Assembly (NCBI GenBank): GCA_027450205.1
Contig: DAIDJL010000004.1
Location: forward strand, 204,413 to 268,412
DNA length: 64,000 nucleotides
From: Candidatus Parcubacteria bacterium
Lineage (GTDB): Bacteria; Patescibacteriota; Minisyncoccia; UBA6257; 2-01-FULL-56-20
Direction of reading: 5' to 3'
This document shows positions 1,726 through 59,921 of the stretch, one piece after another (positions within the stretch are counted from its first letter, which is position 1; every line of letters begins with the position of its first letter). The notes beneath the pieces are model-generated. The model was not told the DNA's origin. It did no database searches and saw only the letters and a list, made by a program, of their open reading frames with translations. The position numbers and the translations under genes are program-made.

Positions 1726-2609
1726 TCATGGCAGCCGCCGATAAAAAATTCGCTCCCCCGAAGTTCGTCTTCTTTGGAACGCCGCGGTTTGCGGAGCTCG
1801 TACTTAAGGGACTTGTCAGTGCCGGATTCGTTCCCGCCGCGCTCGTGTGCAATCCCGACCGTCCGCTCGGCCGGAAGCAGGTCGTCACTCCCCCGCCAAC
1901 GAAGCGCTTCATCATGGAGAACGGATTGCTCACGGCGATCCTCCAGCCGGAAAAATTGGATGATGGATTCATCGCGCAATTACGGGCGCTTCAACCTGAT
2001 TTTTTCGTGGTTGCTGCATTCGCAAAGATCATTCCTTCCGCCGTACTGGATCTCGCGCGTATGGGCGTGCTCGGAACCCATCCGTCGCTTCTTCCCGCAT
2101 ATCGCGGCGCATCCCCCATCCAATCGGCCATCCTTGCAGGCGACACAAAGACCGGAGCAACCATCTATTTGATGGATGCAAAAATGGACCATGGCCCGAT
2201 ATTCGCCCAGGCCGAAGTACCGCTTGATGCACTTACCACAGATTATGTATCGCTCGAGGAACAGCTGGCAAAACTTTCGGCGGAACTGCTTGTCCGCACG
2301 ATCCCGTCGTTGCTTAACGGCACCGTTGCGCCGCGATCGCAGGACGAATCAAGCGCCACGTTCACAAAAAAATTCGTCACCGATAACGGATTCATTGAAT
2401 ACTCCGAGCTTGATGCCGCGATCGCGGGAAACAGCGACAAAGCGGAACTTATCTTACGCACCATTCACGCGCTCACGCCGGAACCGGGTTGCTGGACGAT
2501 CAAAGATAGCAAACGCATAAAACTGCTCGAAGCGCGCATGGATGGATCCGCGTTAAAGCTTTTAACAATACAAGAGGAAGGCGGCCGACCTAAAAGTGCC
2601 GGGGTTTAA
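1722..2609 (+). CDS. fmt: Methionyl-tRNA formyltransferase
   Basis: The start ATG overlaps the def stop as ATGA. Motifs VFFGTPRFA and HPSLLPAYRGASPIQ are present. The gene is partnered with def in the classic way. Confidence 0.9.
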   Translation: MIMAAADKKFAPPKFVFFGTPRFAELVLKGLVSAGFVPAALVCNPDRPLGRKQVVTPPPTKRFIMENGLLTAILQPEKLDDGFIAQLRALQPDFFVVAAFAKIIPSAVLDLARMGVLGTHPSLLPAYRGASPIQSAILAGDTKTGATIYLMDAKMDHGPIFAQAEVPLDALTTDYVSLEEQLAKLSAELLVRTIPSLLNGTVAPRSQDESSATFTKKFVTDNGFIEYSELDAAIAGNSDKAELILRTIHALTPEPGCWTIKDSKRIKLLEARMDGSALKLLTIQEEGGRPKSAGV

Positions 2610-2610
2610 G

Positions 2611-3240
2611 CTATTTTATTTTTTTTGCTGCCTCGAACGTTGCATTCACCGCTGCCCAATCAACGACGTTCCACCAGGCATCAATATAATCTGGGCGCTT
2701 ATTTTGATACTTCAGATAGTAGGCGTGTTCCCAAACGTCAAGGCCAAGCACCGGCGTCTGTTGATTCATGAGCGGACTATCCTGATTCGGCGTTGAGGTG
2801 ATCATGAACTTTCCGTCCTTGTCAGCCACAAGCCACGCCCAGCCGGAACCAAACACGCCCGCCGCCGCCTTAGTGAATAATTCTTTGAATTGCCCAAAGT
2901 CGCTGAACGCGGTCTTGATCTCCGCCGCCACGCGGCCGGTAGGTTCATTGCTCGCATCGGCCTTCATTGGTCCCATGGTGGTCCAAAAGAACGAATGATT
3001 GCTGTGCCCGCCGCCATGATTACGCACCGCCGTGCGGATATCCTCCGGCACCGCGCCCAGATTGCCAAGCAGCTCTTCAAGCGGCTTATCCGCCAATTCG
3101 GGATGTTTTTCAAGCGCCTCATTAAGTTTGTTCACGTACGTCTGGTGATGCTTTGTATAATGGATCTCCATCGTCTTTGCGTCGATATATGGCTCAAGCG
3201 CGTCATAAGCATACGGAAGTTTTGGGAGTTCGTATTTCAT
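2611..3240 (-). CDS. sod: Fe/Mn superoxide dismutase
   Basis: Motifs HYTKHHQTY and DVWEHAYY are present, together with the metal-ligand His/Asp pattern. It is convergent with fmt, with a 1-nt gap. Confidence 0.95.
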
Positions 3241-3264
3241 GATGTTAGTTTAAATAATTATTTG

Positions 3265-3293
3265 TTGGCTTGCGACCGCACCTCCTTTATAAT
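3265..3293 (+). promoter_or_regulatory. Sigma70-like promoter for tRNA-Gln (TTGGCT, 17 nt spacer, TATAAT)
   Basis: The hexamers were read directly, about 40 nt upstream of the tRNA 5' end. Confidence 0.3.
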
Positions 3294-3330
3294 ACATTAT
3301 ACAGGTCGTTTCGTGCCAGAGTTCGCATAT

Positions 3331-3401
3331 TGGGAGATCGTCTAACGGTAGGACAGGGGCCTTTGAAGCCCTCAATCTAGGTTCGATTCCTAGTCTCCCA
3401 G
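3331..3401 (+). tRNA. tRNA-Gln (anticodon UUG)
   Basis: It folds as a cloverleaf. The acceptor is UGGGAGA/UCUCCCA, the T-arm is CTAGG-TTCGATT-CCTAG, and the anticodon loop cuUUGaa has U33 and A37. CCA is not encoded. Confidence 0.85.
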
Positions 3402-3486
3402 CAGTCTAGTACAAGGTGTTAAACGCCCAGGAAGGGTGGGTTTATTAAGGTTAATTTTTATTCCAAAAAAGATGTAAAATTAAGCC

Positions 3487-6400
3487 ATGGAAATTAAAAA
3501 TTTCAGCTTTTTAAAAGATGAGCCTATTACCCCGGGGACGGTTGGATATTTTGAGTTTTATCATAAATATTTTTCCCCGGCCCTAAAAGATATGATTCTC
3601 TCAGATTCATGTCCCCATACTATTGGACTTTTTAGTAAATGGGGCACTGGCAAAAGTTCGATCATTGATCAATTAAAAACTGATCTCCCTAAGAATATTG
3701 CAAAAGTTTTTATTTTTGACGCTTGGAAATATCAAGAAGATTCGCTGCGCCGAACCTTTCTTATTAAATTTGAAGAATTTCTAAAAAGAGAGGGGTACAC
3801 CATTCCACTGGACGCTCTTTCTGGTTTTTATAAGAATAGGAGCAGTTCTACTTCTAGAAGTGGAAATATAAATTCCGAAAATACTGTAAAGGGCTGGCGA
3901 AGAGTGGGTGCCTTTTTCAAATCATATTGGCAGGTTTTGGTTTTTTTGGTTTTGCCCTTAGTGATTTTAGGAACTTTTAACGTATTACTTGCCTATCACC
4001 CTAGCAATGATTTTTTAATTGGGGTTAAGAATTTTTGTGTTTATTTAACGACGCTGTCGTGGTTTGTTTTCTTTTTAAAGCCAGTAGCCGATAAATTTCT
4101 AGATAAAATTAGCGGGAACATTTTCGCTTCAACCAAACAATATACAGAAATTCGCACTCAGATCGAAGAAGAGGAAAGATTGAATTCTCCCGAACAATTT
4201 GAAGCTGTTTTTAATAAACTGATCAGCCATGTTGATGATAAATTAGTGATCGTATTTGATAATATTGATCGCGTTCACGGAGATGTCGCCCTAAAAACCC
4301 TCTCAACTATAAAAACCTTTTTGGATCCAGAAGAAAAATCTAAGGTTGTTTTTGTAGTTCCTTGCGACTCGGATGCAATAAACCAACAGATTAAGGCATT
4401 TTATAAAAATGAAATCGACGAAAATTTCGACGAGTCCGAATATCTCAAAAAGTTATTCAATGTGATTATATACACTCCAGAATTCATCGACGACGATATT
4501 TATCAATACGCAAATGACCTAATCGCGGAAACTGGAGATCTTAAAGATTTACTTTCAAATGAACAAATCTTTTTAGTTATAAAATCTGCATTTAAAAACA
4601 ATCCAAGAGAAATTAAGCAATTTATTAACAATCTCATTGCTGTAATACTAGTCGTTTCTAAAAGTGAAGTTTCAGAATTATTGTTAAATTCTGATGCAAT
4701 TGGTTTTTTAGCAAAAGTTACTGTTTTGAAACAAAAATTTCCTGAAGCTTACAAAAAATTAAAGGAGAATTGGAGCGATCCACAAGGCGTATTAAGCGAA
4801 CATTCGAGTTCTAATTTAAAAGATTTTTTAACTTTAACGAGTGTTGTTACAACTAATAACGCTGAACCATATATCTATTTTAAGGCTCCACAAATAGAAA
4901 GAGATCTCAATGATTCTGTTGGTATTCGAAAAACATTAATCGAAGGAAATGTCGAAGAATTTGAAAAACTTGCCGCAACCGAAACAAAGAAAGATAAATT
5001 AATTCGTTTTATTGGCAGACTTTTATCTAATTACAAGTCTCAGCCACTAATTTTATTTCAAATTTTTAAGACACAGTTACAAGGATTGGCGGATTTAAAT
5101 GAACAAAGTTCTGCTCCAGACTTTCTCAACAACTGCATAGATGCTATTGAAGCAATTTGGAATAATTACCTGAAATTACCTCCAGGTCTGATATTTGATC
5201 TTTTAATAAAGAGCAATGATCACAAAAGGCGAGAATCAATCTTTGATCGCTATGTTCTTGCCCTAGGTACGGAAGAAATAAAGATCGAAGAAAATAAAAT
5301 ATATCTTCATGATTTAATCAATGAATTAATTAGGAATGAAAGATACCTTACTGCTACTCACCAGCTAGCAATTATGGATGCGATAAGACAAAATCTGGTC
5401 GGGCGAGACGATATTTTACTTCAATTCACCACCCTAGACATTCAAACAAAATTTATAGCTCCTGAGAATCTTAGGAGGATAATTCAAGAAGCTCTAAATA
5501 ACAGAACATTGAAGCATTATTTGGCTATTTTAGATTTATATAAAGAATATATTGGTGTTAATAACTTAGGTCCAAATCTTATCAGTCGGATACCTCAGTT
5601 GATTTCTTTAGAAAATAGCGAAATGCCGAATGCATCACCACGAAAACTTGAGTTTCACGATGCCCTTCTACAAATATTTACCAATTTTGCCAGTTATATC
5701 AAAGATATTCCTCCGGCTCAACAACAAGAAATATTCAATGGTTTGAATACTACCTATCAACAAGTCGGACAAGATCAGTCGATCCTTGCCAAGATAACGA
5801 ATTCCCTTCGTTGGCTCTCGTTAAGGACTACTGACGCTAATACAAAAACCCAGGCAGATGCAAAGGTTAATGCCTTTATATCTCAAGTCGATGGAACCGG
5901 TATGAAGTTGACCTTGAAATACTGGAGTTCAAAATCAAAGATAGCTTTTATAAATAATTACTTTGATTCCATTAAAGCGAGGGCTAATGTAGACGATTCT
6001 GTTCTTATGGAGGTATACGAAGTGGCCGATGAAAGCCAAAAAATAACTTTGATTGATTACATTATAAAAAATCGAGGCGATTCCGGTCTCGGATTCCTAC
6101 AAAAAATTGGTAACTCCCTACCGGATCGAATTAAAATTATCAACCTACTTTTATCAAAAGCTGAGGTGTTAGCCATTCAAGATAGAAAAGGTATTTTTGA
6201 CTATCTGCGAAACAAAATAGATGGAAATGATGACGCGACAGTAAAGCAGACCGCCATTAAGGAGTTCTTAAATTTCCTAAAATCTAAGAATCAAGATTTG
6301 ATTCAATTTGGTACTAGCTTGCTTAACGAACCGTTTTTGAATGATTCCGATCATAGAGAAATCACTAAAGAAATGTTGGCGTTTTACAATAACCCCCCCG

Positions 6401-6762
6401 ACATTCTTCAAAAACACGATCTTAGTTTTATTGACTATTTAATTCGGATAGAAGCGAAACTCCAAAACCCTCTAAAGGAAACTCTTGTATATTTAATTTT
6501 TAAAAATATTAGTCCAGACAGACCTTTTGAAATTATCCCCGCATTAATAGAAGATATCTCCTTGCTCAAGCCTAATTCTGATAAATATGAAAAGGATTAT
6601 AGTGATTTAATTGGGCGTGTAAGCGCATGGACTCCTCCAGATCAAAAGCTCCTCATAGTTCAGCAATTAAACGAGGCCATGAAAGGCATTCCGGGTAAAA
6701 AAACTAAGGATTATATTGCGATCCTAGAAAAACTTGTAAGTGCTGAGAAAGAAGCTAACTAA
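3487..6762 (+). CDS. KAP-family P-loop NTPase (1091 aa) with a large C-terminal alpha-helical domain
   Basis: The Walker A is KAP-type, IGLFSKWGTGKSS. Two TM helices are inserted into the NTPase domain. The Walker B is LVIVFDNIDRV. The gene is very AT-rich. Confidence 0.8.
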   Translation: MEIKNFSFLKDEPITPGTVGYFEFYHKYFSPALKDMILSDSCPHTIGLFSKWGTGKSSIIDQLKTDLPKNIAKVFIFDAWKYQEDSLRRTFLIKFEEFLKREGYTIPLDALSGFYKNRSSSTSRSGNINSENTVKGWRRVGAFFKSYWQVLVFLVLPLVILGTFNVLLAYHPSNDFLIGVKNFCVYLTTLSWFVFFLKPVADKFLDKISGNIFASTKQYTEIRTQIEEEERLNSPEQFEAVFNKLISHVDDKLVIVFDNIDRVHGDVALKTLSTIKTFLDPEEKSKVVFVVPCDSDAINQQIKAFYKNEIDENFDESEYLKKLFNVIIYTPEFIDDDIYQYANDLIAETGDLKDLLSNEQIFLVIKSAFKNNPREIKQFINNLIAVILVVSKSEVSELLLNSDAIGFLAKVTVLKQKFPEAYKKLKENWSDPQGVLSEHSSSNLKDFLTLTSVVTTNNAEPYIYFKAPQIERDLNDSVGIRKTLIEGNVEEFEKLAATETKKDKLIRFIGRLLSNYKSQPLILFQIFKTQLQGLADLNEQSSAPDFLNNCIDAIEAIWNNYLKLPPGLIFDLLIKSNDHKRRESIFDRYVLALGTEEIKIEENKIYLHDLINELIRNERYLTATHQLAIMDAIRQNLVGRDDILLQFTTLDIQTKFIAPENLRRIIQEALNNRTLKHYLAILDLYKEYIGVNNLGPNLISRIPQLISLENSEMPNASPRKLEFHDALLQIFTNFASYIKDIPPAQQQEIFNGLNTTYQQVGQDQSILAKITNSLRWLSLRTTDANTKTQADAKVNAFISQVDGTGMKLTLKYWSSKSKIAFINNYFDSIKARANVDDSVLMEVYEVADESQKITLIDYIIKNRGDSGLGFLQKIGNSLPDRIKIINLLLSKAEVLAIQDRKGIFDYLRNKIDGNDDATVKQTAIKEFLNFLKSKNQDLIQFGTSLLNEPFLNDSDHREITKEMLAFYNNPPDILQKHDLSFIDYLIRIEAKLQNPLKETLVYLIFKNISPDRPFEIIPALIEDISLLKPNSDKYEKDYSDLIGRVSAWTPPDQKLLIVQQLNEAMKGIPGKKTKDYIAILEKLVSAEKEAN

Positions 6763-8089
6763 TTTCATCGAGCATAATAGTTTTTTCGATTAAAACTAAC
6801 TTTGATTTGATTGTATTTAATAGTTTCCTCTTTTCGGGTATCGATCCATCTTCAAGAATATATTTGCTGTAATTTCTAATATCGATATCTTTAGCTCTGC
6901 AATCTTCGATCGATCGACCAAGAATATTGAAGTGGAATTTTTTATGTCGCTCAATTTCCAATTCAAGGTTTTTTCTGATGCCAGATCGATCTAAATCAAT
7001 TTTATTGATTAATTGAACCAATTGGTTAATTAGAGAGCGTTCTTCAATATAGAATTCCTTACAATTAATGTCCTTGGCACGGGTACATCCATAGTAAATA
7101 TATTTTGAGACTTCTCCATTTTTAAGTTTTTTATATTTATCCTGCGCCGTAACCCCTGAGCCACATTTCCCACAAAACATTAATTTCGTAAAAGCGAATT
7201 CCTTGTTAACTCTCGGCGCCTTCCGCTGAAGATCTAGCTGCTCCTGCGCTTCGTCAAAAAGCTCTTTAGAGATGATCGGCTGATGTTTGCCCTGATACCA
7301 TCTTCCGCTTCCCCGTGGATATTCAAATGTGCCGTGATAGAAATGATTATTAAGCAACGTGTAGACATTGCTAATGGTAAATGACTTTCCGTTTCGTGAT
7401 ACAAAGCCCGTTTCTTTGAGCCAGCGATATATCTTCCGGCCACTCCAGCCACCGTGAGCTACTTTCGTAAATATCTCTTTCACGATAGGAGCGCGGATCG
7501 GATCGAGGAATATCTGTCCTTTCTGGTCGACGTTCTTTGAGTTGAAATATCCCGTGGGAGCAACCGACGGCCAGAGTCCCATCTCGCACTTTGTTTTGAG
7601 CCCTCGCTTCACATTGATGCTCTTGTTGTCATTCTCTAGCTTTGCTTGAGAACCGAGAATCATGAGCAGGAATTTCTCGTTTGGATTATTCGTAAATCGC
7701 TGGCTGTGGGTTTTGATTTCGATGAGCTTCTTTTGGTCGAGAAGATCAACGAGGGCGCCGAGGTCACCGGCGTTACGACTCAAACGATCGGGATGCCACA
7801 CAAGAATGGCGTCGAACTTCCCCTCCCGGATATCCGCGAGGAGCTTATTGAATACTGGGCGCTGCCCACAGTCTTTGGCCGAGTGGGATTCCTTATAAAT
7901 GTCGATTACGTTCAAATTGTCCCGTTGGGCCACAAGTAGCATCTCTTTGGTCTGGGAATCGATCGACAAGGCCTGTTTTTCCTCCGCCTCGCTCGATTTA
8001 CGGGCATACAGGCAGTATTGGAGGGGTTGTGCCGTAACTGGCTGTGGACCGCTTATTTGGGCTCCCTGCAGTGGTGTTGTATATTCCAT
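6755..8089 (-). CDS. Large serine recombinase (resolvase/integrase family)
   Basis: A YARKSS catalytic-Ser region, a DRLSRN motif, a recombinase domain and a C-terminal zinc ribbon (CGKCGSG...YYGC) are present. Its 3' end overlaps the KAP gene convergently by 8 nt. Confidence 0.9.
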   Translation of the reverse strand: MEYTTPLQGAQISGPQPVTAQPLQYCLYARKSSEAEEKQALSIDSQTKEMLLVAQRDNLNVIDIYKESHSAKDCGQRPVFNKLLADIREGKFDAILVWHPDRLSRNAGDLGALVDLLDQKKLIEIKTHSQRFTNNPNEKFLLMILGSQAKLENDNKSINVKRGLKTKCEMGLWPSVAPTGYFNSKNVDQKGQIFLDPIRAPIVKEIFTKVAHGGWSGRKIYRWLKETGFVSRNGKSFTISNVYTLLNNHFYHGTFEYPRGSGRWYQGKHQPIISKELFDEAQEQLDLQRKAPRVNKEFAFTKLMFCGKCGSGVTAQDKYKKLKNGEVSKYIYYGCTRAKDINCKEFYIEERSLINQLVQLINKIDLDRSGIRKNLELEIERHKKFHFNILGRSIEDCRAKDIDIRNYSKYILEDGSIPEKRKLLNTIKSKLVLIEKTIMLDEIS

Positions 8090-8154
8090 ACCAACAACAA
8101 AGCCCGAGGCAGGTTTATAAGTCCAGCGGGCGAAGTGGATAACTTACTAAGCGG

Positions 8155-8829
8155 CTAAAGTGGTTTGGTGAGGGGTAAACCTTCAGACATTATATAAGTT
8201 AAAAATTCTCTCCCGAGAGGGGTGATAGTCGCCATGCCGGTAGTCTGCCATTCTTCAACTGGGGGCAAAGCCACAAGACCAGCATTCTTAAGATAATTTA
8301 AGTAGTCGGCGAACGGATAATTCCTGATTGTTGGATATTGCACTGCGGCATTCATATAAAACTGAGTTGCGTTAACTATCCTCATGCCGGCGGGAGTAGC
8401 GTTAAGCAGAGACAATAAGCTAAGCTGGCTGCCAAAAATATTACTATAGATCCTTTCAAACAATGTCTTCTTCCCTTGCTGAAGTAGCGCACCTTGTAAT
8501 TGAGCTATGCTGGTGCGCAAGCTTTCAGTAGACGCCTCGCTGTTCCTTTGTTCTTCAATTGGAAATGTTTCCACGCCTGAAGATCCTATTGATTTTATTC
8601 TCCGAATAAAAAGATCAACTGCCTCTTTATGTCCAAGCAAAATCAATAGGAAAATAATTAAGATTACGGCGGGCCATGAACTGAGAATTAATTTAAGATA
8701 GGTATCTAATATTTTCGAAATTTCTAAAATTTGCTGATGATAAAGTTTTCCGAAGACCACCAAAATAAAGGCGAGCAGGCCGGGATACCAGCTCGCCTTC
8801 AAAAAGCTTTTAACACCAGATCGTACCAT
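8155..8829 (-). CDS. Hypothetical membrane protein (2 N-terminal TM helices plus a soluble C-terminal domain)
   Basis: The ORF lies 52 nt downstream of the XRE gene on the same strand. It is AT-rich. Confidence 0.5.
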   Translation of the reverse strand: MVRSGVKSFLKASWYPGLLAFILVVFGKLYHQQILEISKILDTYLKLILSSWPAVILIIFLLILLGHKEAVDLFIRRIKSIGSSGVETFPIEEQRNSEASTESLRTSIAQLQGALLQQGKKTLFERIYSNIFGSQLSLLSLLNATPAGMRIVNATQFYMNAAVQYPTIRNYPFADYLNYLKNAGLVALPPVEEWQTTGMATITPLGREFLTYIMSEGLPLTKPL

Positions 8830-8881
8830 GCTTAAAGCATAAACCTAAACCGCCGAATTGTTAAAGTCGATGGAGATACTT

Positions 8882-9103
8882 TTACTTCAAAAAATATGAA
8901 ATCGGCTTCCCGTAAAGCTGAGCAAAGCGCTTGAGCTCGATCACATCAACCCGTTGCTGGCCTGATTCAATGTTTGAAATATGAGACTGCGGCCTGCCAA
9001 TTTTCTTTGCAGCCTGCACCTGAGTAAGGCCGGCGTCGAGTCGGGCTTTGCGCAAACGCTCCACAAAATAGGCATATTCCTTAGTCTGGATTGACTTGGT
9101 CAT
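8882..9103 (-). CDS. XRE-family HTH transcriptional regulator (Cro/CI-like)
   Basis: The motif LTQVQAAKKIGRPQSHISNIESGQQ is a classic XRE helix-turn-helix. Confidence 0.85.
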   Translation of the reverse strand: MTKSIQTKEYAYFVERLRKARLDAGLTQVQAAKKIGRPQSHISNIESGQQRVDVIELKRFAQLYGKPISYFLK

Positions 9104-9114
9104 TACCTCAACGC

Positions 9115-9149
9115 TATATCCAGACTTTCAATATCCAAACTTTGGATAT
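9115..9149. promoter_or_regulatory. Operator-like site: a 9-1-9 perfect palindrome ATATCCAAAcTTTGGATAT plus an upstream half-site ATATCCAGACTTT
   Basis: The site lies 12-46 nt upstream of the XRE start codon, in a divergent intergenic region. Confidence 0.4.
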
Positions 9150-9237
9150 TATGCTAAGCTAGCGGAAAAGGGCCTTAAAACCGGAGTGGATAACTCTGAC
9201 TTGCAATTACCTGGACGTAAGCTCAAATGCAAAAGCT

Positions 9238-9510
9238 ATGAAAATAACCCTTAAGAAAGTTCTGTGGTTCGCCGCGTTCTGGGCTGTATTTCTGCTTGGT
9301 TGGTGGCGAGGCTGGCAACAGAGTCCTGATGCTACCCTGCTTCGGCAGGCATCGGGATTACAAGCGCAAATCGATAAATGCACGCTGGTAACTCAAAAAG
9401 CATGCTCGGATATAGAAGCCCAAGATAAAACACTGATTGAACTGGGCGCTCCGCCCTCACAGGTAACACTTCATTGTTCCTCAAGTTCACTATCTCAACC
9501 CCTCGAATGA
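9238..9510 (+). CDS. Small hypothetical membrane protein (90 aa, N-terminal TM)
   Basis: It has a hydrophobic N-terminus and is AT-rich. Confidence 0.35.
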   Translation: MKITLKKVLWFAAFWAVFLLGWWRGWQQSPDATLLRQASGLQAQIDKCTLVTQKACSDIEAQDKTLIELGAPPSQVTLHCSSSSLSQPLE

Positions 9511-9707
9511 TCATGAAAGCTATCACGAAAAAATGGATTGAACTTATAGTCGCAGCCACAATCCTCTATTGGATTGTTTCAGGGAGCGACGATCGCCAGC
9601 TTCTTATAGGATGTGCAATCGGGATTATTGTGCTTCTCTTTAAGGACACGATTCGAGATGAGTTCAAAAAAGCTCGCGAAGACGACAGACCAAATTATTC
9701 TCCCTGA
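9507..9707 (+). CDS. Small hypothetical membrane protein (~66 aa, 2 TM)
   Basis: There is an ATGA start/stop overlap with the previous ORF. The longer 9474 start overlaps that ORF. Confidence 0.35.
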   Translation: MIMKAITKKWIELIVAATILYWIVSGSDDRQLLIGCAIGIIVLLFKDTIRDEFKKAREDDRPNYSP

Positions 9708-11056
9708 AGAATGAACTTTACCGCTTCATCTGCCCGCTTTTCGAAATTTGGATCGACTTCCTCAAGAAGATCAAAATATCGGTATCCTAACTTTTCGGCA
9801 CGACTTCTGAGCAGCTTATTCAATGGAATTGTTTCGGTTGTTTCTCGTTCAACATCACGTCGCACGGCCTCTTCTCCACGAGTAAGGATATCGCGATAAA
9901 CATAGCTTTTTTCTTTTACCTTTTTCGCATAATCAATTCTTGCCTGGGCATGTGAAGGACTGCTGTAACCAATAAAAATTGGTCGGATCTCAAAATTTTT
10001 AAGCTCTAAATCGCTTATATTCTCTGGGGTTATGGCTACGCCCTCCAAAAGCAAATCTGGTCCCATACGATGATGGTCGTAATATTTAATCAATCCTAAG
10101 CTAGCCTTCCATGCAAAATAATCTTCGCCCTGATCCCCGGATTCAAATCGGACATCTTCACTCGTAGGAGTTGTTGCTAAGACTTTTATATTAGCCGTTG
10201 CAACTCCTGCCTTGCTCATGAAAAAAGTTTGATTAACGGTCCCGCGAACCCCATCAGTTTCAACGGATATTAATGAGAGGTCGTCCTTAGTTTCGTCTTT
10301 TATAACGATGGGCGCCAATAAATCCCCCTCAACTTTTCCCTGGGAGATCATATCAAAAGGTTTCAGATGCGCTTCAAAAACAATTTGTTTGAAAGTTTTT
10401 GGGTCTTCGCCAACAAGCACGCTACGCAAGCCGGCCAAAATCGCCTCACGAGTGAGCGGAATTAACTTATGATGTTCTTCGATCTTTTCTCGTATGTAAC
10501 TTTTTCCAGCTTTAGCGTAACCTCCAATTAAATAAAGACGCCTCTTTCTCTTTGGTATAGGTTGCCATTCATTTTTCTTGAGATCGCTTTTTGATATTTC
10601 AGAATTACTAATAGCGCCACAGTTGGGGCACACGGCAACAATTTTGCGGGGACCTCGCGGATCCCATCCTTCGACAAATTGAAGCCATAGTTTTGCGGAC
10701 GATGAAGCTCCCGATTTTTTACCAATTGCCTTCATCCGAAGTGCTTCCAAAACTTGAACCGTATATTCCTTATACCGCATGACGATCTGCCCGAGATATC
10801 TATTCCGGGCAGCTTCCCAATCAATTTTTCTGTTCCAATCCGTAAGGGTGCCAAGGTCTTTTATCCCGAATCGCTGGGCGAACTGTGTTTGAGTTTTTAT
10901 CCCTTCCAACTCTTTAAGTAAGGGGTCGTCATGTCCGTGCTGCTCAAGAATTTCTGCAGGAAGTCCCCGATACCCCGATGGAAGCATATTCCACAAGACG
11001 TAAAGCTCAAATTCTCGCTTTTTGTAAGGTGTGCGGTTTTTGGCATTTATTGGCAT
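9695..11056 (-). CDS. Hypothetical protein with an N-terminal HTH-like region, a CPNC zinc ribbon and a P-loop (GGYAKAGKS) kinase/NTPase-like domain
   Basis: The GxxxxGKS Walker A was read directly. There is an hhhhEG Walker-B-like LLLEGV. No confident family assignment is possible. Confidence 0.5.
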   Translation of the reverse strand: MPINAKNRTPYKKREFELYVLWNMLPSGYRGLPAEILEQHGHDDPLLKELEGIKTQTQFAQRFGIKDLGTLTDWNRKIDWEAARNRYLGQIVMRYKEYTVQVLEALRMKAIGKKSGASSSAKLWLQFVEGWDPRGPRKIVAVCPNCGAISNSEISKSDLKKNEWQPIPKRKRRLYLIGGYAKAGKSYIREKIEEHHKLIPLTREAILAGLRSVLVGEDPKTFKQIVFEAHLKPFDMISQGKVEGDLLAPIVIKDETKDDLSLISVETDGVRGTVNQTFFMSKAGVATANIKVLATTPTSEDVRFESGDQGEDYFAWKASLGLIKYYDHHRMGPDLLLEGVAITPENISDLELKNFEIRPIFIGYSSPSHAQARIDYAKKVKEKSYVYRDILTRGEEAVRRDVERETTETIPLNKLLRSRAEKLGYRYFDLLEEVDPNFEKRADEAVKFILQGE

Positions 11057-11130
11057 TTGTATTTATTGTACATCCTCCACCAAAGCATTTGCTAGCAGTA
11101 TTAGCGAAGCGTAGAATAGGCATACCTCTC

Positions 11131-11712
11131 ATGAAAAAGATCAATCTTAAATGGCAAAAAGAGGCACTTCTTAAAAGCGCGAAGGCTATCGCGACCTCCG
11201 CGGAAACTTATGTTATCTTTGCTCTCGTCCTTCTCCTCTGGCGATTTGCCGCAGGGATGAAATTCGAGCTGCATAATATTGATCCGTTTTCAACTCCCAC
11301 CTTTTTTGAGCGGTCGTTCTATAGCGCGATCACCTTTTTTACGACCGGGCGGATCTTATATAAGTTAGGCTTCTACAAATTACTTTGGGAACTCATTCAA
11401 GATTGGCGTGATTACGTTGCGATAAAAGGAATTATCTGGGTGATATTAATGGGCATATCATACGAATACATAGTTCCGTGGGCATTCGATATTTTGAACG
11501 GCATATCATCTTTGCTTTTCAACATAGCCAATTTCGCATTGTATATGACCCCACCGATTGGGATAGCGGCTATTTTGAGCGCCATCTATTTTATCTATAA
11601 GCCGGATCCGGTAGTGCTTGATGTTAGAATGGAGCCTGACCAGGAGGGGTTGCCAATACCCATCCCCCTACCCTCAGAAGTGCCCGTGAACACTGATATC
11701 TACAACGACTAG
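11131..11712 (+). CDS. Hypothetical integral membrane protein (4 predicted TM)
   Basis: Start chosen at MKKINLKW. The longer ORF from 10978 overlaps the upstream gene. Confidence 0.45.
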   Translation: MKKINLKWQKEALLKSAKAIATSAETYVIFALVLLLWRFAAGMKFELHNIDPFSTPTFFERSFYSAITFFTTGRILYKLGFYKLLWELIQDWRDYVAIKGIIWVILMGISYEYIVPWAFDILNGISSLLFNIANFALYMTPPIGIAAILSAIYFIYKPDPVVLDVRMEPDQEGLPIPIPLPSEVPVNTDIYND

Positions 11713-11790
11713 ACCAGAGTACGCAGCCGACAAACGCCAAGTTGTTTGGCGAGAAAATCTGTTTCGTTTTGTCACATACCCGAACCTTGA

Positions 11791-14295
11791 TCAGGGCAGC
11801 TGCGGGATCGGAAGGTTCAGCGACGGGCACATAATCATATTGATCAAGCGCTGGGTTGTCTTATAGACATAGCCCGTCGGGGCAACGGCGTTCACCAACC
11901 CATGCGGAACCCAGGGAGCAAGGACATCGCTGGAATATTTCAATTGGAACTGGCGCACGGCCGCTTCAGATACCGGACCATAATAGCCGCTGATCGGGAT
12001 ATTCAAGCCGAGCTCTTTGTTCAAGAACACCTGCAGCTTCATCACTTCCACGGGATCGTTCTGCCCGTTCGCGTACCGCGCCGGCGTGATGTATCCCGTC
12101 AGATAATATCCGCATGTCGTGCTGGCGCCGAGTACCTGGCCCTGCTCCGCCGGAGGTGCCGTTACCACGATCGGCGCGGGTGCGGTAGTGGAAGCTCCAA
12201 GCACCAATCCCTGGCCGATCGGCGCCAATCGCCCTCCGGCGGCGACCCCTACGGTCGCTCCGCCGCCTCCGCCGGTATTATTGTTGCCGTTGGTTCCATC
12301 ATTGCTTCCGCCGCTCCGCACGACGACCGTCACAGAAGAAGTGTTGTCCTCGGGGGTCGGATCCGTAAAGCTGCCGAGCGTGCTTGATACCGTCGCGGTG
12401 TTCACGATCGTATTTCCCGCCTCTCCCTGCCCCACTGTCATTGCGATGGTCATCGTCGCTGTTGCGTGGGGTTCCAGCGTTCCCACCTCCCAATTTACGC
12501 CGTTGCCGACAAGGGCAAGTGATCCCTGAGAAGATGTCGCATTCGCAAAGGTCAGCGCCGTCGGCCACGTATCATTCCCCGTCACGAACGCCGCCGGGGC
12601 ATCGCCGCTGTTTTCAACCATGATGGAATACACAATGCCCGTTCCGGGATCGGGATTCGCATTGTCCACCGCCTTGCTCACGGCAAGATCCGGCCCGATC
12701 GTACCACCCCCGCCGCTTATCACCGGAAGCGTGATGCTGGAACTATTATTGGAAAGATTCAGATCTTCGCTCCATTCATCGCCGGCAACGGAGGCCGTGT
12801 TCGTAATGGCAGATGCGTCGATTCCCGGGTCCACAAGAGCGGAAAGATCAAGCGTCGCGCCGGAACCGGCGGAGAGGGTTCCGATCAGCCACGCGCCCGT
12901 CGAGCTTTCATAGCTGCCGATCGATGTGGTCGCATTCATGAACATGAGCCCATCCGGCAGGAGGTCCTCCGCTGTAATACCGGTAGAAGTTGCCGGGCCG
13001 AGGTTCGCGACCGCGATCCGATATCGAACGATGCTCCCCGGAGCCGTCGATGTCGCCTCGGCGGTCTTTTCCACAGAGAGATCGGCCTGCGGTATGATCA
13101 TCGGCCCGCTGAACACCGCCACGATCGTGCTTCCGGTCGTCGCCGAATCAATGGAGAAGGAACAGGAAGTCGACGTCGCGCCGGCGCACGGGCCCGTACT
13201 CCATAGCGCGAACGTGGAACTCGCATCCGGCGTGGCGAAGAGAGTCACAGGCGTTCCGATAGCGAACACCTGCATACAAACGGACGAGGTCGCATCGGCG
13301 GAATCGCAATAGATCGTTCCCGAGGCATCCGTAATGACGCCGTCCCCGGTGCCGCCCGTGGCAACCGTAAGCGCATAGGTTTGGATCCCGAATGCGGCAC
13401 TCACTTCGGCATCCGCCGACATTGTGACCGTGCAGACGCTGGATGTCCCGGCCGACGCACATGCGCCGCCCCATCCTTCAAATGTCGATGTGGGAACGTC
13501 GGGGCTCGCCGTAAGCGTCACCGTAGCATCCTTCGGGAAGTTCGCCGTACAGACCGCGCCCGCCGTGCCGCACGAGATCCCTGCCGGATCGCTCGCTATC
13601 GTTCCGGTCCCTTCACCCGTGGTGGTGGCCGTCAGAGTGCGGGTGGGACCCGATATGAACCGGACGTCGATCGTGTGATCGTCTGTGATATCGGTAAAGG
13701 TATAAGAATCCGCGGTCGTGGTGGAAACGCCGTCAATAAGAAGGGCGCCTACCGTTCCCCCGCCCGACGGAACCATCGTAAAGGTCTGATCGCCGTGATA
13801 CCCGACGGTCATGGTGCCAGCCGGAGCGATCGTCCCGCCGTCCCCCGCCACGGCGACGATCCTTGGACGAACCGTCACGGTGGTCGTTGCCGCGGCATAC
13901 TGTTCGTTATCCTCGCTCACTTCGCCGTGATAGGCCATTGCCGTCACGATATATTCCCCCGGTCCGGCATACGTATGCGTCGCGGACCATGTCGCGGAAA
14001 ATGTTTTCGGAGAGGCACTGGATGAAACGATGACAAAGTCGCTCACGGGAACCGTACGCCCGCCGTCGCCCCAATCCGTCACGCCAACATGAACGGCACT
14101 CAGCGAACCTGTATATGGGTTCGCTCCCGCCGTTCCTTGAAGGGTCACCGTCCGTTCAGGCTCGTCCAAGACTGTTGAAGCGATGTCTATGGAGTAGTTC
14201 ACCGGGATCGCAAAAACCGAAAGCGCGGGTGCTACCGCACCCCCCACAGCAACGGCGCCGAATATGATCAAATTAAAAACAAGTTTTTTGTTCAT
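11791..14295 (-). CDS. Large secreted cell-surface protein. It has a signal peptide, a PKD-like domain, several InlB-type B-repeat domains (C..C..F.GW.G.C motifs), DUF11-like repeats and a C-terminal peptidoglycan-binding domain.
   Basis: The N-terminal signal is MNKKLVFNLIIFGAVAV. Repeated modules are Gly/Thr/Ala-rich. The C-terminus KLQVFLNKELGLNIPISGYYGPVSEAAVRQFQ resembles PG_binding_1. Confidence 0.7.
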   Translation of the reverse strand: MNKKLVFNLIIFGAVAVGGAVAPALSVFAIPVNYSIDIASTVLDEPERTVTLQGTAGANPYTGSLSAVHVGVTDWGDGGRTVPVSDFVIVSSSASPKTFSATWSATHTYAGPGEYIVTAMAYHGEVSEDNEQYAAATTTVTVRPRIVAVAGDGGTIAPAGTMTVGYHGDQTFTMVPSGGGTVGALLIDGVSTTTADSYTFTDITDDHTIDVRFISGPTRTLTATTTGEGTGTIASDPAGISCGTAGAVCTANFPKDATVTLTASPDVPTSTFEGWGGACASAGTSSVCTVTMSADAEVSAAFGIQTYALTVATGGTGDGVITDASGTIYCDSADATSSVCMQVFAIGTPVTLFATPDASSTFALWSTGPCAGATSTSCSFSIDSATTGSTIVAVFSGPMIIPQADLSVEKTAEATSTAPGSIVRYRIAVANLGPATSTGITAEDLLPDGLMFMNATTSIGSYESSTGAWLIGTLSAGSGATLDLSALVDPGIDASAITNTASVAGDEWSEDLNLSNNSSSITLPVISGGGGTIGPDLAVSKAVDNANPDPGTGIVYSIMVENSGDAPAAFVTGNDTWPTALTFANATSSQGSLALVGNGVNWEVGTLEPHATATMTIAMTVGQGEAGNTIVNTATVSSTLGSFTDPTPEDNTSSVTVVVRSGGSNDGTNGNNNTGGGGGATVGVAAGGRLAPIGQGLVLGASTTAPAPIVVTAPPAEQGQVLGASTTCGYYLTGYITPARYANGQNDPVEVMKLQVFLNKELGLNIPISGYYGPVSEAAVRQFQLKYSSDVLAPWVPHGLVNAVAPTGYVYKTTQRLINMIMCPSLNLPIPQLP

Positions 14296-14745
14296 GTTAT
14301 TTTTATCGGGCGAGGCATTGACTTACATTCATTGACCTTGTCCGACATGTACTACAACATCCCCTATGCCGTATTACAAGACGAATGAGCAACCTCAAAA
14401 CGCCCTCAGCAAAACGCAAGGATGCCTTACTCTTCTTTTTTGTTTTGTCCGCATGTCCAGCGAACAGCGAACATATACCACAACGGGCCGCGACCGGCCC
14501 ATGCGCAGTTTCTTTGCCTTGGTATCACACGAGAGCCCAAACTCTCTGCGCTCTCACCGACATCCCACGGGATGGCACGATCTTGAGCGTCTGCGATGGC
14601 CAGTTCGATCAAAGAACTCGGCACTGGGTTTTTGGTAGCGGCCCACTCACTATTACATCCGCTCTTGGGATTCCTAACCATCGCAGACGGTGGCCGCAAC
14701 ACATCCCGTCCGTATCGGAAAAATCCTGGATCGAGGTGTCTGGCA

Positions 14746-15855
14746 CTATCCCAAAAACCTCTTCACCCTCGCTGCCAATTCCTGTTGCACCCGCGCATTC
14801 ACTTTTTTACCCGCGAGCAATAAAAAATTATAGTCCGATGGATAACCGGCGAGCTCCATAAAACCGACGCCACTTACTTTCTTGCCGCCGACCGTGGCGG
14901 CAACGGCGATCGGGCCTTCCCAATAATTGATGGCGCCGAAGATCATTTCCTGATCGTGCATCCGCGCGTGCGTTGTAAGCGTGATACCTTTTTCCGGTAT
15001 GGAAATATTCCACGCGAGCGGATATTCGGCCTTCGTCGTTTTACTCTTCCAGATTTCCGATCCGGAAGAAAACGCCGCTTCAGAAACATGCGACGCCTTG
15101 CCGTGCGCATCCAAAATGTCCACGACACGATCCTTCCCCTTGCCGTCATCATATTCCACGCACATGATATCCATGCCATTTTCAAGCTGGATGGAAAACC
15201 ATGTCCACCTGTCTTTTGCGTAAGGCGTATCCGCCCATTGGTGATCCATCCATGAGCGGCCGGTCACGGAGACCCATCCGTCATCGGTACCCGCGCCTCT
15301 GCCCGCGCCGGCGCCAGGGACACGAATCATGCCCGTAGCTTTGAGGTCGGTCAGCGAATAGTAAAAACTTTCACGGCCACGCACGGAAATGAATCCGTTG
15401 CCGCCCTCAAGCATCACCGGGCGGCGCGATTCCAGCAGAAGATCGATCGTTTCGGTTTTGATATGGAATTTTCCCGGTGCGATCTCCGCCATCTCATGCG
15501 CCACGAACCCGCCAGCGACGGAGACCGGATCTATATAGTTTGCGTAAAAAAGCGGCCGTGTGAACGTATCGCGCGAAGCAAGCGAGATGTTCTGCACGTC
15601 CTTCCATGTTTTTCCCGCGCCAAGGTCCGCCAGCATGGAATGCGCAAAAAGTGCATAACGCCCCGCCTTGCCCGCACCGAAAATATTTTTAAAATATGGG
15701 ATCTTTACCTTATCCGCATCCGCGCGAAACAGGCAATCCATGAACGCATAATGATTGCCTCGCACATCCGTTAAAAAACCATTAAAGTACCACCATTCAA
15801 TGATGGTATCGTGCGGCAACGTATCTTGCGGAAACCGTATCGCGCGCGGTTTCAT
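14746..15855 (-). CDS. CrtC/AttH-like (hydroxyneurosporene-synthase-like lipocalin domain) protein
   Basis: An N-terminal EWWYFNG motif is typical of the CrtC/AttH family. Moderate confidence. Confidence 0.5.
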   Translation of the reverse strand: MKPRAIRFPQDTLPHDTIIEWWYFNGFLTDVRGNHYAFMDCLFRADADKVKIPYFKNIFGAGKAGRYALFAHSMLADLGAGKTWKDVQNISLASRDTFTRPLFYANYIDPVSVAGGFVAHEMAEIAPGKFHIKTETIDLLLESRRPVMLEGGNGFISVRGRESFYYSLTDLKATGMIRVPGAGAGRGAGTDDGWVSVTGRSWMDHQWADTPYAKDRWTWFSIQLENGMDIMCVEYDDGKGKDRVVDILDAHGKASHVSEAAFSSGSEIWKSKTTKAEYPLAWNISIPEKGITLTTHARMHDQEMIFGAINYWEGPIAVAATVGGKKVSGVGFMELAGYPSDYNFLLLAGKKVNARVQQELAARVKRFLG

Positions 15856-16517
15856 GAGAATGTCCTGCTCTCCCCCGCTCCGAGGGCCACGTATTCCACG
15901 CCATCGGCCTTAAGAAAATTCTGAAGCATCGCCACCACAAACCCGCCGAAGCCCGGCACGATCATTCCGTCGTGCACGCCGAACGCGACGCGTGGTTTTA
16001 CCGCCTTGGCAAAGTCTATCGCCTCGCTGATCTTCATCCACGGGCCGGCGACCGGAAGTGCAAGTACGTCGATCGGACGTTTTGGGTCATAGAATGCATC
16101 GCCGGGAAAATAGAACTTGCCCGCAACGAGATATCCGGTATTCTCGCACGCCCCCATGGTGCCGTATATGATCGCATGATCCTTACCGAAGCCTTCTATC
16201 AATATTCCGGCCGAACCGTTTCCCGCTCCCACCGTTGCGGACTGCATATCGCCTACCACCGTGCACGGAATGTTCTTTTCCGCCAAAAGCTTCGCAACCG
16301 CACCGTTGCTCACCACGGTCGCACCCGGATTATTGGCCAATACCGCCTGGACGGACTCGATGTGATAGTGGTCGGTGTGCTCGTGGGTGATAAGAATGAC
16401 GTTGATCCCTGTTACCGTCTTGACGGGCTCGATCGTGAACGACCCGGGATCGGTCAATATTTTCATTCCTTCATTTTCCAACACCAAACAACAGTGCCCA
16501 AGTTTTGTGATGATCAT
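15852..16517 (-). CDS. Metallo-beta-lactamase-fold hydrolase
   Basis: The HEHTDH (HxHxDH) motif and the downstream His/Asp ligand pattern are present. Confidence 0.8.
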   Translation of the reverse strand: MIITKLGHCCLVLENEGMKILTDPGSFTIEPVKTVTGINVILITHEHTDHYHIESVQAVLANNPGATVVSNGAVAKLLAEKNIPCTVVGDMQSATVGAGNGSAGILIEGFGKDHAIIYGTMGACENTGYLVAGKFYFPGDAFYDPKRPIDVLALPVAGPWMKISEAIDFAKAVKPRVAFGVHDGMIVPGFGGFVVAMLQNFLKADGVEYVALGAGESRTFS

Positions 16518-57207: not shown

Positions 57208-58008
57208 ATGGCCGAAGACCAATATCTTGATATCCTCGTTTCGTTTGAGCCGATTTTTAAGCAGGCCGCCGAGCTCGCGTGCGATTTGAGGAATAAAGTC
57301 TCGTCCTACAACAAATCAGAGACGGGCGTCGGGGCTCTCGACATCGTCACCGAGGCCGACCTGCAGGTCCAGGAATTCATCCTTTCAAAGCTGGCCGACA
57401 CTTCCCTCGCCGAGTGCGAGCTGATCGCCGAAGAAGCCACGCCGTCCGTTTCCCGATTCAAAGGGACGAACGGATTGGTGCTCACGATCGACCCAATCGA
57501 CGGCACGGCGATCTACGTGGATGGAGGAAACTATTTTTCGCTGATCATCGGTATGCACAATAAGAAGGACCTGCTCTATACCTATTACCGCTATCCCCTG
57601 CTTGGATGGACCAAGCGGATAGTGAAGGATTGTGCGGAAGACATCGGCGATGTGCCCGAGATGAAGACCAAGCCGGGCATCGACCCGATGCGCGTGATTG
57701 CGTATCTATCCCACGTAAAACCGGACGCGCTGCCGCCAGAGATCGAACAAAAGCTTGCGGCGGGAGGATTTTCCGTACATGGCTATAAGGACATTTTTGA
57801 CGAAGGCACCATGACCGCGCTGCTCTATGGCGGAAAGATCGCCGGCATGTGCATGCAAAACCCGGTCGCATATGATTGTTTGGGGTGCCTCCATTATGCG
57901 CAAGCAGCGGGCGGCTTTGAAATCTATTCGACTGTGAATCTTTCGGAGCCGACCAAGGGGCCGTTCGGGATATATTATCCCGGATTGTATGTCGTATGGA
58001 AAAAGTGA
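57208..58008 (+). CDS. Inositol monophosphatase-family (IMPase/FBPase/CysQ-like) phosphatase
   Basis: DIVTEADLQVQEFI and LTIDPIDGT motifs are present. Start taken at MAEDQY. Confidence 0.8.
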   Translation: MAEDQYLDILVSFEPIFKQAAELACDLRNKVSSYNKSETGVGALDIVTEADLQVQEFILSKLADTSLAECELIAEEATPSVSRFKGTNGLVLTIDPIDGTAIYVDGGNYFSLIIGMHNKKDLLYTYYRYPLLGWTKRIVKDCAEDIGDVPEMKTKPGIDPMRVIAYLSHVKPDALPPEIEQKLAAGGFSVHGYKDIFDEGTMTALLYGGKIAGMCMQNPVAYDCLGCLHYAQAAGGFEIYSTVNLSEPTKGPFGIYYPGLYVVWKK

Positions 58009-58042
58009 GGGTTACGGCGTTCAAATCCCTACAATAATAAAC

Positions 58043-58155
58043 AAATATTTATCTTTCCTCTCGTAAAGGTGCCTCGGAGGTACGAAGGTGCCGAGAGCCA
58101 AGGCGGCCAGCCAGTAGGCTGGAACGCCGTCCTTTACGAGAGGAAAGATAAATAT
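58043..58155. ncRNA. Unclassified structured element, copy 2. A conserved 63-nt core (58068-58131) is enclosed by a 25-bp perfect stem, extendable with one bulge.
   Basis: The stem AATATTTATCTTTCCTCTCGTAAAG/CTTTACGAGAGGAAAGATAAATATT differs from copy 1, while the core is 84% identical. A/T-rich tracts flank it on both sides. Confidence 0.45.
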
Positions 58156-58184
58156 TGTTTTTCTTAAATGTTATTCCTAAATCC

Positions 58185-59861: not shown

Positions 59862-59921
59862 CTTGAGGAAATTGTAATTTACTCTTAACTCTTATTCATA
59901 TCTAGTATTCATTTGATTGAA

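Follow-up and report, generated by a model that had tools for sequence, protein, structure and literature searches.

What is a strongly AT-rich gene doing directly downstream of a tRNA gene in a bacterium of the candidate phyla radiation (CPR), and did it arrive there alone? The question is raised by a locus in a Candidatus Parcubacteria genome, which we studied in a 64,000-nt stretch of contig DAIDJL010000004.1 (assembly GCA_027450205.1, positions 204,413 to 268,412), referred to here as the window. Behind a tRNA-Gln gene in the window lies a gene for a KAP-family P-loop NTPase, followed by a convergent gene for a large serine recombinase (LSR). An initial annotation of this DNA had taken the two genes for a minimal integrated element with KAP as its only cargo, and for a new type of defence system. 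We find that the genes are what they were said to be, that the KAP protein has the architecture of its family, that its gene is foreign in composition and absent from syntenic relatives, and that the family is linked both to LSRs and to restriction-modification (R-M) genes. With moderate confidence, we read the region as a reduced and mosaic phage-like element that has an LSR as its integrase and a recently acquired KAP gene as cargo, the latter serving in defence against phages or mobile genetic elements (MGEs).

The core of the locus comprises the following features:

3331-3402, + strand: tRNA-Gln(ttg), found with ARAGORN; left landmark of the inserted region
3403-3486, no strand: spacer of 84 nt between the tRNA-Gln and the KAP ATG
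3487-6762, + strand: KAP-family P-loop NTPase gene, 1091 aa, ATG start (Pfam KAP_NTPase)
3640-3660, + strand: Walker A motif WGTGKSS, aa 52-58 of KAP (motif check and family alignment)
3892-4128, + strand: hydrophobic hairpin of two helices, aa 136-214 of KAP (AlphaFold2 and hydropathy); putative membrane anchor, possibly effector
4246-4272, + strand: Walker B motif VIVFDNIDR, aa 254-262 of KAP (motif check and family alignment)
4897-6759, + strand: C-terminal all-alpha, HEAT/ARM-like solenoid, aa 471-1091 of KAP (AlphaFold2 and Foldseek); putative sensor or scaffold
6755-8089, - strand: LSR/integrase gene, 444 aa, convergent with KAP (Pfam and PHROGs)
~7577-8011, ~7232-7498 and ~7016-7192, - strand: Resolvase, Recombinase and zinc-ribbon domains of the LSR (Pfam)
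7150-7250: compositional break inside the LSR gene; right end of the block of 30-37% GC

The coordinates match those first reported, with the KAP gene starting after the 84-nt spacer and the 3' ends of the KAP and LSR genes overlapping by 8 nt. The spacer presumably holds both the left junction and the KAP promoter. A scan for promoters and terminators gave counts no higher than the shuffled expectation.

Is the 1091-aa protein a genuine KAP NTPase? It matches Pfam KAP_NTPase (PF07693) over aa 30-383 with 90.5 bits, where the cutoff is 20 (E=1.6e-25). The Walker A and Walker B motifs, correctly read in the initial annotation, are invariant in a 42-sequence family alignment, in which G53, G55 and K56 as well as D258, N259, D261 and R262 do not vary. 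An AlphaFold2 model built from the same alignment has a mean pLDDT of 84.4, rising above 90 across most of the C-terminal half. The model splits the P-loop core by two long helices (aa 136-170 and aa 175-214) between Walker A and Walker B, as had been proposed from the letters. The title of the 2004 paper that defined the KAP family reportedly names transmembrane (TM) helices inserted within the NTPase domain. Sequence conservation of the hairpin across the family is only 0.33. Two hydrophobic peaks recur at the same hairpin positions, and both exceed 1.5 in 33 of the 42 sequences. The hairpin may thus be a membrane anchor and possibly an effector.

The C-terminal region is helical, as had been suggested, and the model and Foldseek add that it is all-alpha and HEAT/ARM-like. 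It is shorter than the ~800 aa first estimated: the helical region past the Pfam domain spans ~700 aa, and the solenoid proper ~620 aa (aa 471-1091). The Foldseek matches of the solenoid (karyopherin-beta, CRM1, PP2A-A, CAND1 and CAP-G, with E ~1e-5 and TM-scores of 0.1-0.3) indicate a predicted fold class and no specific homolog. No Pfam domain was matched by the C-terminal region, and a PDB sequence search returned no significant match. The solenoid is less conserved (0.39-0.43) than the NTPase (0.58-0.65).

How widespread is this architecture? A homolog search found more than 120 full-length KAP relatives of ~1080-1100 aa with 24-59% identity. Those that carry a name come nearly all from Patescibacteria (Parcubacteria, Paceibacterota, Niyogibacteria and Saccharimonadales), the exceptions being one metagenome-assembled genome (MAG) of Bacteroidetes and one archaeal MAG. 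A HMMER search that took only the solenoid as query and was run exhaustively on 1.84 billion representatives returned 57 clusters, nearly all of them proteins of 1050-1110 aa that match at the same position. Because the solenoid is confined to few proteins and occurs almost solely fused to this KAP, at one position, we conclude that it is private to this KAP family and that the architecture is fixed. A plasmid search gave distant matches to the KAP core only, mainly from haloarchaea and Ensifer, and tblastn with KAP on plasmids at 1e-5 gave no Enterococcus match.

The KAP gene is foreign to its surroundings. Its GC content is 0.34 and its GC content at third codon positions (GC3) is 0.30. The host genes of the left flank have 52-54% GC, so the compositional break noted in the initial annotation is real, with a flank lower than the 55-62% given there. 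GC3 is 0.56-0.68 in the host genes fmt and sodA and in a DUF11 gene further to the right. The AT-rich block (30-37% GC) extends from 3403 to ~7200 and ends within the LSR gene. Right of 8154, where the two-gene element would stop, GC remains at 40-47% up to ~11.7 kb, and position 8154 is therefore neither a compositional boundary nor a boundary of the element. The features to the right are these:

8155-8829, - strand: orphan open reading frame (ORF), 224 aa, with N-terminal hydrophobic segments and a GC content of 0.41; within the inserted region
9695-11056, - strand: ORF of 453 aa with a helix-turn-helix (HTH) domain and a P-loop (GGYAKAGKS)
10978-11712, + strand: orphan ORF, 244 aa, hydrophobic; last ORF of intermediate GC
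11791-14295, - strand: gene for a DUF11/peptidoglycan-binding surface protein, 834 aa, GC content 0.60
14746-15855, - strand: CrtC/lipocalin-like gene; first right-hand host gene collinear with the relative L011, and outer bound of the insertion

What does the site look like when it is empty? We scanned species-representative genomes with the flanking fmt protein. The nearest host relatives are Paceibacterota, whose fmt proteins are 68-69% identical, which places them at genus or family level. Four relatives (L009-L012) keep the order def-fmt-sodA-tRNA-Gln(ttg), and in none of the four does this KAP gene follow the tRNA. In L011, ~550 bp separate the tRNA from the homolog of the window gene 14746-15855, compared with ~11.3 kb in the window. 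That CrtC/lipocalin-like gene is 76% identical to its counterpart in L011 (13023-14117), and collinearity continues through znuABC and lexA. The ~11.3 kb that the window has in excess of L011 comprise KAP, the LSR, four orphan ORFs and the DUF11 gene (11791-14295). The last, with a C-terminal peptidoglycan-binding domain, lies within the interval missing from L011 and yet has host-like GC; because of this composition it probably falls outside the element, whose right end, judged by composition, probably lies at ~11.7 kb. In being of atypical composition, carrying an integrase, adjoining a tRNA gene and having no counterpart in syntenic relatives, the locus bears the marks by which islands are recognised. 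Neither of two outcomes named beforehand as fatal to an integrated KAP gene, its presence in close relatives with host-like composition or failure of the protein in searches with hidden Markov models (HMMs), occurred. The initial annotation was right about an integrated element at the tRNA-Gln, and its extent goes beyond 8154.

The recombinase is a plausible integrase for such an element. All three LSR domains are present (Resolvase PF00239, 1.1e-25; Recombinase PF07508, 6e-20; Zn_ribbon_recom PF13408, 1.1e-6), PHROGs identifies it as an integrase (phrog_95, 7e-75), and the DRLSR motif lies at aa 101-105 and a CGKC motif at aa 306. This bears out the early identification of a large serine recombinase with a zinc ribbon and DRLSR. 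The nearest named NCBIfam models are CcrB (140 bits, cutoff 900) and XisF (89 bits, cutoff 375), so the protein is below every equivalog cutoff. Its gene is compositionally divided. The N-terminal two thirds have ~50% GC, and GC3 is 0.5-0.7 (~0.6, host-like) over codons 30-300 and 0.30, KAP-like, over codons 300-444. In 100-nt windows GC rises from 0.34 to 0.51 at ~7200, or about codon 300, where the zinc-ribbon domain starts. Such a step is absent from three control LSRs, and it suggests a recombination joint inside the LSR gene. We found no support for a protein chimera of two LSR lineages, as the ranking of relatives is alike for the N-terminal and the C-terminal part.

Where else do such recombinases occur? 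The LSRs that adjoin KAP homologs in L001, L004, L007 and L072 are 53-58% identical to that of the window, and a search of viral contigs with the LSR retrieved 25 IMG/VR loci at 46-62% identity. Most of the 25 (L150-L174) are collinear and share a backbone of a ParB_N-DNA methyltransferase, a small HTH protein (~125 aa), a terminase-like protein (~450 aa), a variable slot (1-4 kb) and the LSR. On viral contigs that reach far enough, a tRNA lies on the opposite strand 0.1-4.6 kb past the LSR (Gln(ctg) in L153; Ser in L151, L152, L155 and L169). The same backbone module occurs in L001 (14358-17435), L004 (14497-18183) and L072 (14022-17075). At the terminase-like position L072 has a gene that matches Terminase_3 and Terminase_6N, and its protein shows no detectable sequence similarity to that of the L001 type. 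The related elements are 8-15 kb long or more. Beside the related LSRs lies accessory cargo: a distant KAP gene of 899 aa in the viral locus L150, a RelA/SpoT-type synthetase in L151, HsdM in L154, and APH with ABC-F in L166. Genes without assigned function stand convergent with the LSR in the flanking slots of L152 and L169. KAP is absent from 24 of the 25 viral loci. These comparisons hint that CPR bacteria may host a family of satellite-like, terminase-bearing elements.

Several of these loci merit a remark of their own. The L072 element is apparently only ~14.5 kb long, with no obvious structural genes. The L151 cargo (11271-11885) is a 204-aa RelA/SpoT-domain protein that is toxSAS-like; the APH phosphotransferase and ABC-F ATPase of L166 occupy 2516-4989, and HsdM of L154 occupies 7985-9475. 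Islands with LSR and KAP also contain copper-resistance clusters (L001 17515-22056; L004 2612-8510), with a CsoR-type repressor, an HMA/P-type ATPase, a cupredoxin and a multicopper oxidase.

What remains of this backbone in the window? The LSR and an HTH domain are present, and no homolog of the ParB-methyltransferase or of the terminase-like gene was found in the window; the two missing genes would be consistent with a reduced remnant. The HTH domain forms the N-terminal 130 aa of the protein encoded at 9695-11056, which is 41% identical over 128 aa to a 127-aa HTH protein of L004 (E 1e-23 to 2e-27) and 35% identical to its counterpart in L151. The L004 HTH gene matches HTH_28 and is TerS-like. 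The remaining ~320 aa carry the P-loop GGYAKAGKS, and the ORF matches no Pfam, PHROGs, PADLOC or NCBIfam family. We considered whether this ORF is a terminase remnant: its resemblance to the L072 TerL is only at the level of Walker A (E 0.004-0.02), and it has none to the 454-aa protein of L001. The ORF next to the LSR gene (8155-8829) has no Pfam, PHROG, PADLOC or NCBIfam match.

The tRNA-Gln itself is a repeatedly used site. L009 carries a different LSR (599 aa, 33% identical) directly after the same tRNA-Gln, and the 3' flank of this tRNA is therefore a recurrent integration hotspot. LSRs related to that of the window adjoin tRNA-Gln genes in L001, L071 and L153. Across the KAP islands the adjoining tRNAs are Gln(ttg) in L001, Gln(ctg) in L071, Glu in L074, Trp in L007 and Ser in L004.

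The tRNA genes show some further peculiarities. The tRNA-Gln of the window differs strongly from that of the closest host relatives L010-L012, and its acceptor stem is the same as in the tRNA-Gln(ctg) of L071, to whose D and T arms its own are nearly identical. In L001 an exact 20-nt copy of the tRNA 5' end (3413-3432) lies 131 nt upstream of the tRNA (3564-3635). The L071 LSR (93-1694) overlaps the 3' end of its tRNA (34-105) by 13 nt, and in L009 the LSR ORF (11700-13499) runs antisense across the entire tRNA gene. Besides this LSR, the L009 element (11700-16291) has an excisionase-like gene of the HTH_17 type and encodes a Toprim-domain protein of 826 aa. We also considered that the island supplies the tRNA-Gln, as the window, L001 and L009 have a D-arm in common that L010-L012 do not share. 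That L032, L059, L062 and L107 have a D-arm of this type and no recombinase weakens the idea. No displaced copy of a host-type tRNA-Gln was found.

Is the association of KAP with LSRs more than chance? A Pfam-confirmed LSR of 441-533 aa lies within 10 kb of KAP in L001, L004, L007, L070, L071, L072 and L074, and not in L073. Including the window, this makes 8 of 9 evaluable KAP loci, compared with 1 of 61 control loci, which were fmt-anchored Patescibacteria loci totalling 985 kb (Fisher p=8e-9; p=1.6e-6 by a conservative count). The KAP-homolog loci have 33-39% GC. In L004, KAP and LSR are divergent neighbours. The LSR of L072 is 53% identical to that of the window while its KAP is only 32% identical, and this uncoupled divergence means that the modules shuffle, as cargo would.

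A second association, and the most telling of the new contextual evidence, is with R-M genes. In at least 7 of ~13 loci (L001, L070, L072, L073, L081, L083 and L088) KAP stands behind R-M genes on the same strand, and in six of the seven only 1-12 nt separate it from the ORF before it or are shared with that ORF. The partners are diverse. Type I genes precede KAP in L072 (HsdM/S/R, with a 4-nt overlap), in L070 (N6_Mtase and Methylase_S) and in L088 (HsdR and HsdM-S, with a 257-aa ORF followed by a DUF5655/NucS_C gene between them and KAP). L001 and L073 have a Type III-like N6_N4 methyltransferase with ResIII ahead of KAP, and L081 has a Type II DpnII with a methyltransferase and then an ORF of 143 aa, which overlaps the start of KAP. 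L083 has a Type IIG/helicase arrangement, with an Eco57I/MmeI-type methyltransferase, an SNF2/ResIII helicase and a gap of 125 nt to KAP. In L080 a ResIII gene lies near KAP with an opposite-strand ORF between them. Abortive infection genes also occur, with HEPN-AbiU2 directly after KAP in L074 and Abi_alpha in L001. No R-M genes adjoin KAP in the window, L004, L071 or L074. Two other genes follow KAP: DUF5677 directly after it in L007 (13297-14058) and an SPFH/Band 7 protein after it in L073 (13429-14835).

Does the protein belong to a known defence system? Among PADLOC models, KAP matches QatA (4.5e-16), PDC-S20 (6.3e-15) and PifA (2.9e-5). We reject an identity with QatA: NCBIfam QatA (NF041923) scores 70.6 bits (E=1.1e-19), far under its equivalog cutoff of 600, and no neighbour matches any PADLOC model. 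An identity with PifA is also rejected, as the PADLOC PifA match (20.9 bits, E=2.9e-5) covers aa 44-104 only. PDC-S20 matches with 53.6 bits in two stretches, the better of which aligns profile positions 146-445 of 464 with aa 215-517, and the KAP protein is more than twice as long as this 464-position model.

How might the element and its cargo have come together, and what would the protein do? In the reading that we favour, the region downstream of the tRNA-Gln would represent, in reduced and mosaic form, a type of phage-like integrative element found commonly in Patescibacteria, with the 444-aa LSR as its integrase. KAP would fill the slot between the 3' end of the LSR gene and the tRNA junction, its low, donor-like GC pointing to a recent acquisition. 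The protein would act as a stand-alone, membrane-anchored NTPase that defends against phages or MGEs. Its solenoid would bind a protein cue derived from the phage or from the infection, and the AAA+/STAND-like NTPase would then switch through nucleoside triphosphate (NTP) binding or hydrolysis, probably with oligomerisation. The output would be exerted at the membrane through the hairpin, as a change in permeability or ion flux, and/or through consumption of NTPs, so that phage replication is blocked. We infer the defence function, the sensing by the solenoid and the membrane-level output by analogy; the defence role is suggested because of the R-M and Abi neighbourhoods, the location on a mobile element, the patchy distribution with donor-like composition, and the architecture of an NTPase joined to repeats. 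A role in phage defence, as the initial annotation had it, is plausible in the light of the PADLOC matches, these neighbourhoods and published KAP defences.

Several observations weigh against this reading. The matches to defence HMMs cover the generic KAP core only, no recognisable enzymatic effector domain was found in the KAP protein by Pfam or Foldseek, and in the window copy of the hairpin TM1 is strong and TM2 weaker (Kyte-Doolittle value 1.47). No KAP relative was found among 50,697 phage GenBank records, nor on viral contigs by a close-relative search. The term phage-like derives from the relatives of the LSR and the backbone and from the IMG/VR classification. The KAP loci for which context is available form a small sample that lacks phylogenetic independence, and the host, a CPR bacterium, is uncultured. 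The KAP gene of the window could be inert if the family works only with R-M. As to the boundaries, no tRNA-derived direct repeats marking attL and attR were found in 3200-15000; the crossover core of LSRs is very short, and informative att repeats are not expected. The intergenic DNA at the locus cannot be aligned with the empty site of L011. The empty-site comparison proposed at the outset showed L011 to be without ~11.3 kb, and neither attL and attR nor the exact boundaries were located by it.

Which other explanations could account for the locus? If it were a self-contained element of two genes at the tRNA-Gln 3' end (3403-8154), as originally proposed, one would readily understand why KAP and LSR are adjacent with an 8-nt overlap, why the AT-rich signal peaks only within these bounds and why the two genes are close in relatives such as L004. 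However, the AT-rich block stops at ~7200 inside an LSR gene whose N-terminal two thirds have a GC3 of ~0.6, and DNA of 40-47% GC with four further ORFs, one with an HTH domain common to related islands, continues to ~11.7 kb. Moreover, L011 is without 11.3 kb rather than 4.8 kb, the related elements are larger and share a conserved backbone, and all other loci have the LSR 3' end facing the tRNA or KAP across the LSR. We consider a two-gene element highly improbable, and the claim that KAP is the sole cargo of a minimal element does not survive the break inside the LSR gene, the four further ORFs and the size of the related elements. The least probable of the readings is that KAP serves the life cycle of the element itself, for example by handling DNA at the membrane, by partition, or by hindering or exploiting a helper phage, and does not protect the host. 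Its absence from most relatives that bear the backbone, with 24 of 25 viral loci lacking it, marks KAP as accessory and not core, more distant members of the family (25-28% identity) stand beside R-M genes with no LSR, and the phylogenies of KAP and LSR are uncoupled in L072.

The main rival is that the KAP-solenoid protein is an accessory or guard of R-M systems, which it would tether or regulate at the membrane or whose inhibition would trigger it in the manner of PrrC, the copy in the window having lost its partner. The position of KAP behind R-M genes in at least 7 of ~13 loci with tight, operon-like spacing speaks for this explanation. Nevertheless, the partners belong to at least four unrelated types (I, II, III-like and IIG), a variety that tells against a specific physical partnership; the KAP genes of the window and of three other loci have no R-M neighbour; and the published EF_KAP acts alone (PMC13552941). 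We therefore regard the guard explanation as unlikely. A wider proposal takes the whole ~1090-aa family of KAP, hairpin and solenoid to be a Patescibacteria-specific second line of immunity coupled to R-M. Its genes would be co-transcribed behind R-M systems of any type, its solenoid would detect phage anti-restriction or other infection cues and bring about arrest at the membrane, and it would have spread across CPR bacteria of very different GC in the accessory slots of satellite-like, terminase-bearing LSR elements that target tRNA genes. We put this forward as a speculation and hold it to be quite unlikely as it stands. The reduced phage-like element with a recently acquired KAP defence gene remains the reading that we prefer.

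Why does the locus matter? Immunity in Patescibacteria and the CPR is poorly charted, and the locus provides a clean, recently transferred example of a putative KAP-type defence gene. If protection were proven, the newly validated class of KAP defences would extend to CPR bacteria, and a tractable single chain would be at hand in which a sensor made of repeats is joined to an NTPase and to an output at the membrane. In the literature searched, we found nothing that links KAP NTPases to Patescibacteria, or serine recombinases to Patescibacteria and defence. A CPR family of KAP proteins with a private solenoid, its place behind R-M operons and its carriage in the slots of terminase-bearing LSR elements appear to be undescribed. 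As a general idea, a KAP defence gene neighbouring a serine recombinase on mobile DNA is in the literature already, so the advance is incremental.

Elsewhere in the window, a second and milder patch of low GC (0.40-0.47) at ~58000-61400 adjoins the window's one further tRNA gene, a tRNA-Glu(ctc) (61335-61410, - strand). It encodes a 558-aa zinc-ribbon protein and a 365-aa TIG-domain protein, and no recombinase was detected in it.

How does the locus compare with known systems? QatA is the best defence-HMM match to the KAP core of the window, but its models are ~600-650 aa long without a solenoid, and by PADLOC no QatB/C/D-like genes neighbour the window KAP. PDC-S20 is a KAP-type candidate defence model in PADLOC, itself unvalidated and without mention in the literature searched; unlike the window protein, its 464-position profile is NTPase only. 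RdrA of RADAR and the STAND/Avs/NLR families differ in that the window KAP lacks both an RdrB deaminase partner and an N-terminal effector domain, and in that they have no inserted membrane hairpin. The LSR resembles those of temperate phages and islands in its three-domain architecture, its catalytic-serine and DRLSR motifs and its place at the end of an element beside the target gene, although it scores under all equivalog cutoffs.

Two systems offer precedents for an output at the membrane. PifA of the F plasmid is described as a member of the KAP family whose exclusion of T7 goes with membrane depolarisation and leakage of nucleotides, and it is reported to have no TM helices (PMC13001434). 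Like the window protein, PifA is a KAP-family NTPase on a mobile element, and by the same account it acts alone with a membrane-level outcome. It differs in its C-terminal region, and the match between the two is weak, local and limited to the Walker A region. Tmn is a P-loop NTPase of the YobI family with an inserted TM hairpin, which senses the T2 protein RIIB and causes plasmolysis (PMC13001434). The likeness lies in the two TM helices inside the P-loop domain and, for the function proposed here, in a stand-alone defence that senses a phage protein with an outcome at the level of membrane or ions. In contrast to the window protein, Tmn belongs to the YobI and not to the KAP family and has no large accessory domain.

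The closest precedent, from 2025-26, comes from single-gene KAP NTPases beside small serine recombinases, of which EF_KAP and three others cut plaquing by up to 6 logs (PMC13552941, Andersen et al.; bioRxiv 10.1101/2025.10.07.681051). These validated defences, together with PDC-S20, forestall the suggestion that a KAP gene on a serine-recombinase element would be a new type of system. Their protection requires Walker B and the C-terminal region (PMC13552941). They differ from the window in the recombinase, which here is the large integrase of a phage-like element and in their study (RADS) is the small resolvase/invertase-type bait EF_B0058; in the hosts, which are Bacillota or gut taxa rather than Patescibacteria; and in the C-terminal region, which has 322 aa in EF_KAP as against a HEAT-like solenoid region of ~620-700 aa here. 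What they share is a single polypeptide that joins a KAP NTPase to TM helices (in EF_KAP one of these lies within the NTPase) and to a C-terminal region in which no known domain is recognised, as well as genetic linkage to a serine recombinase and carriage on mobile DNA.

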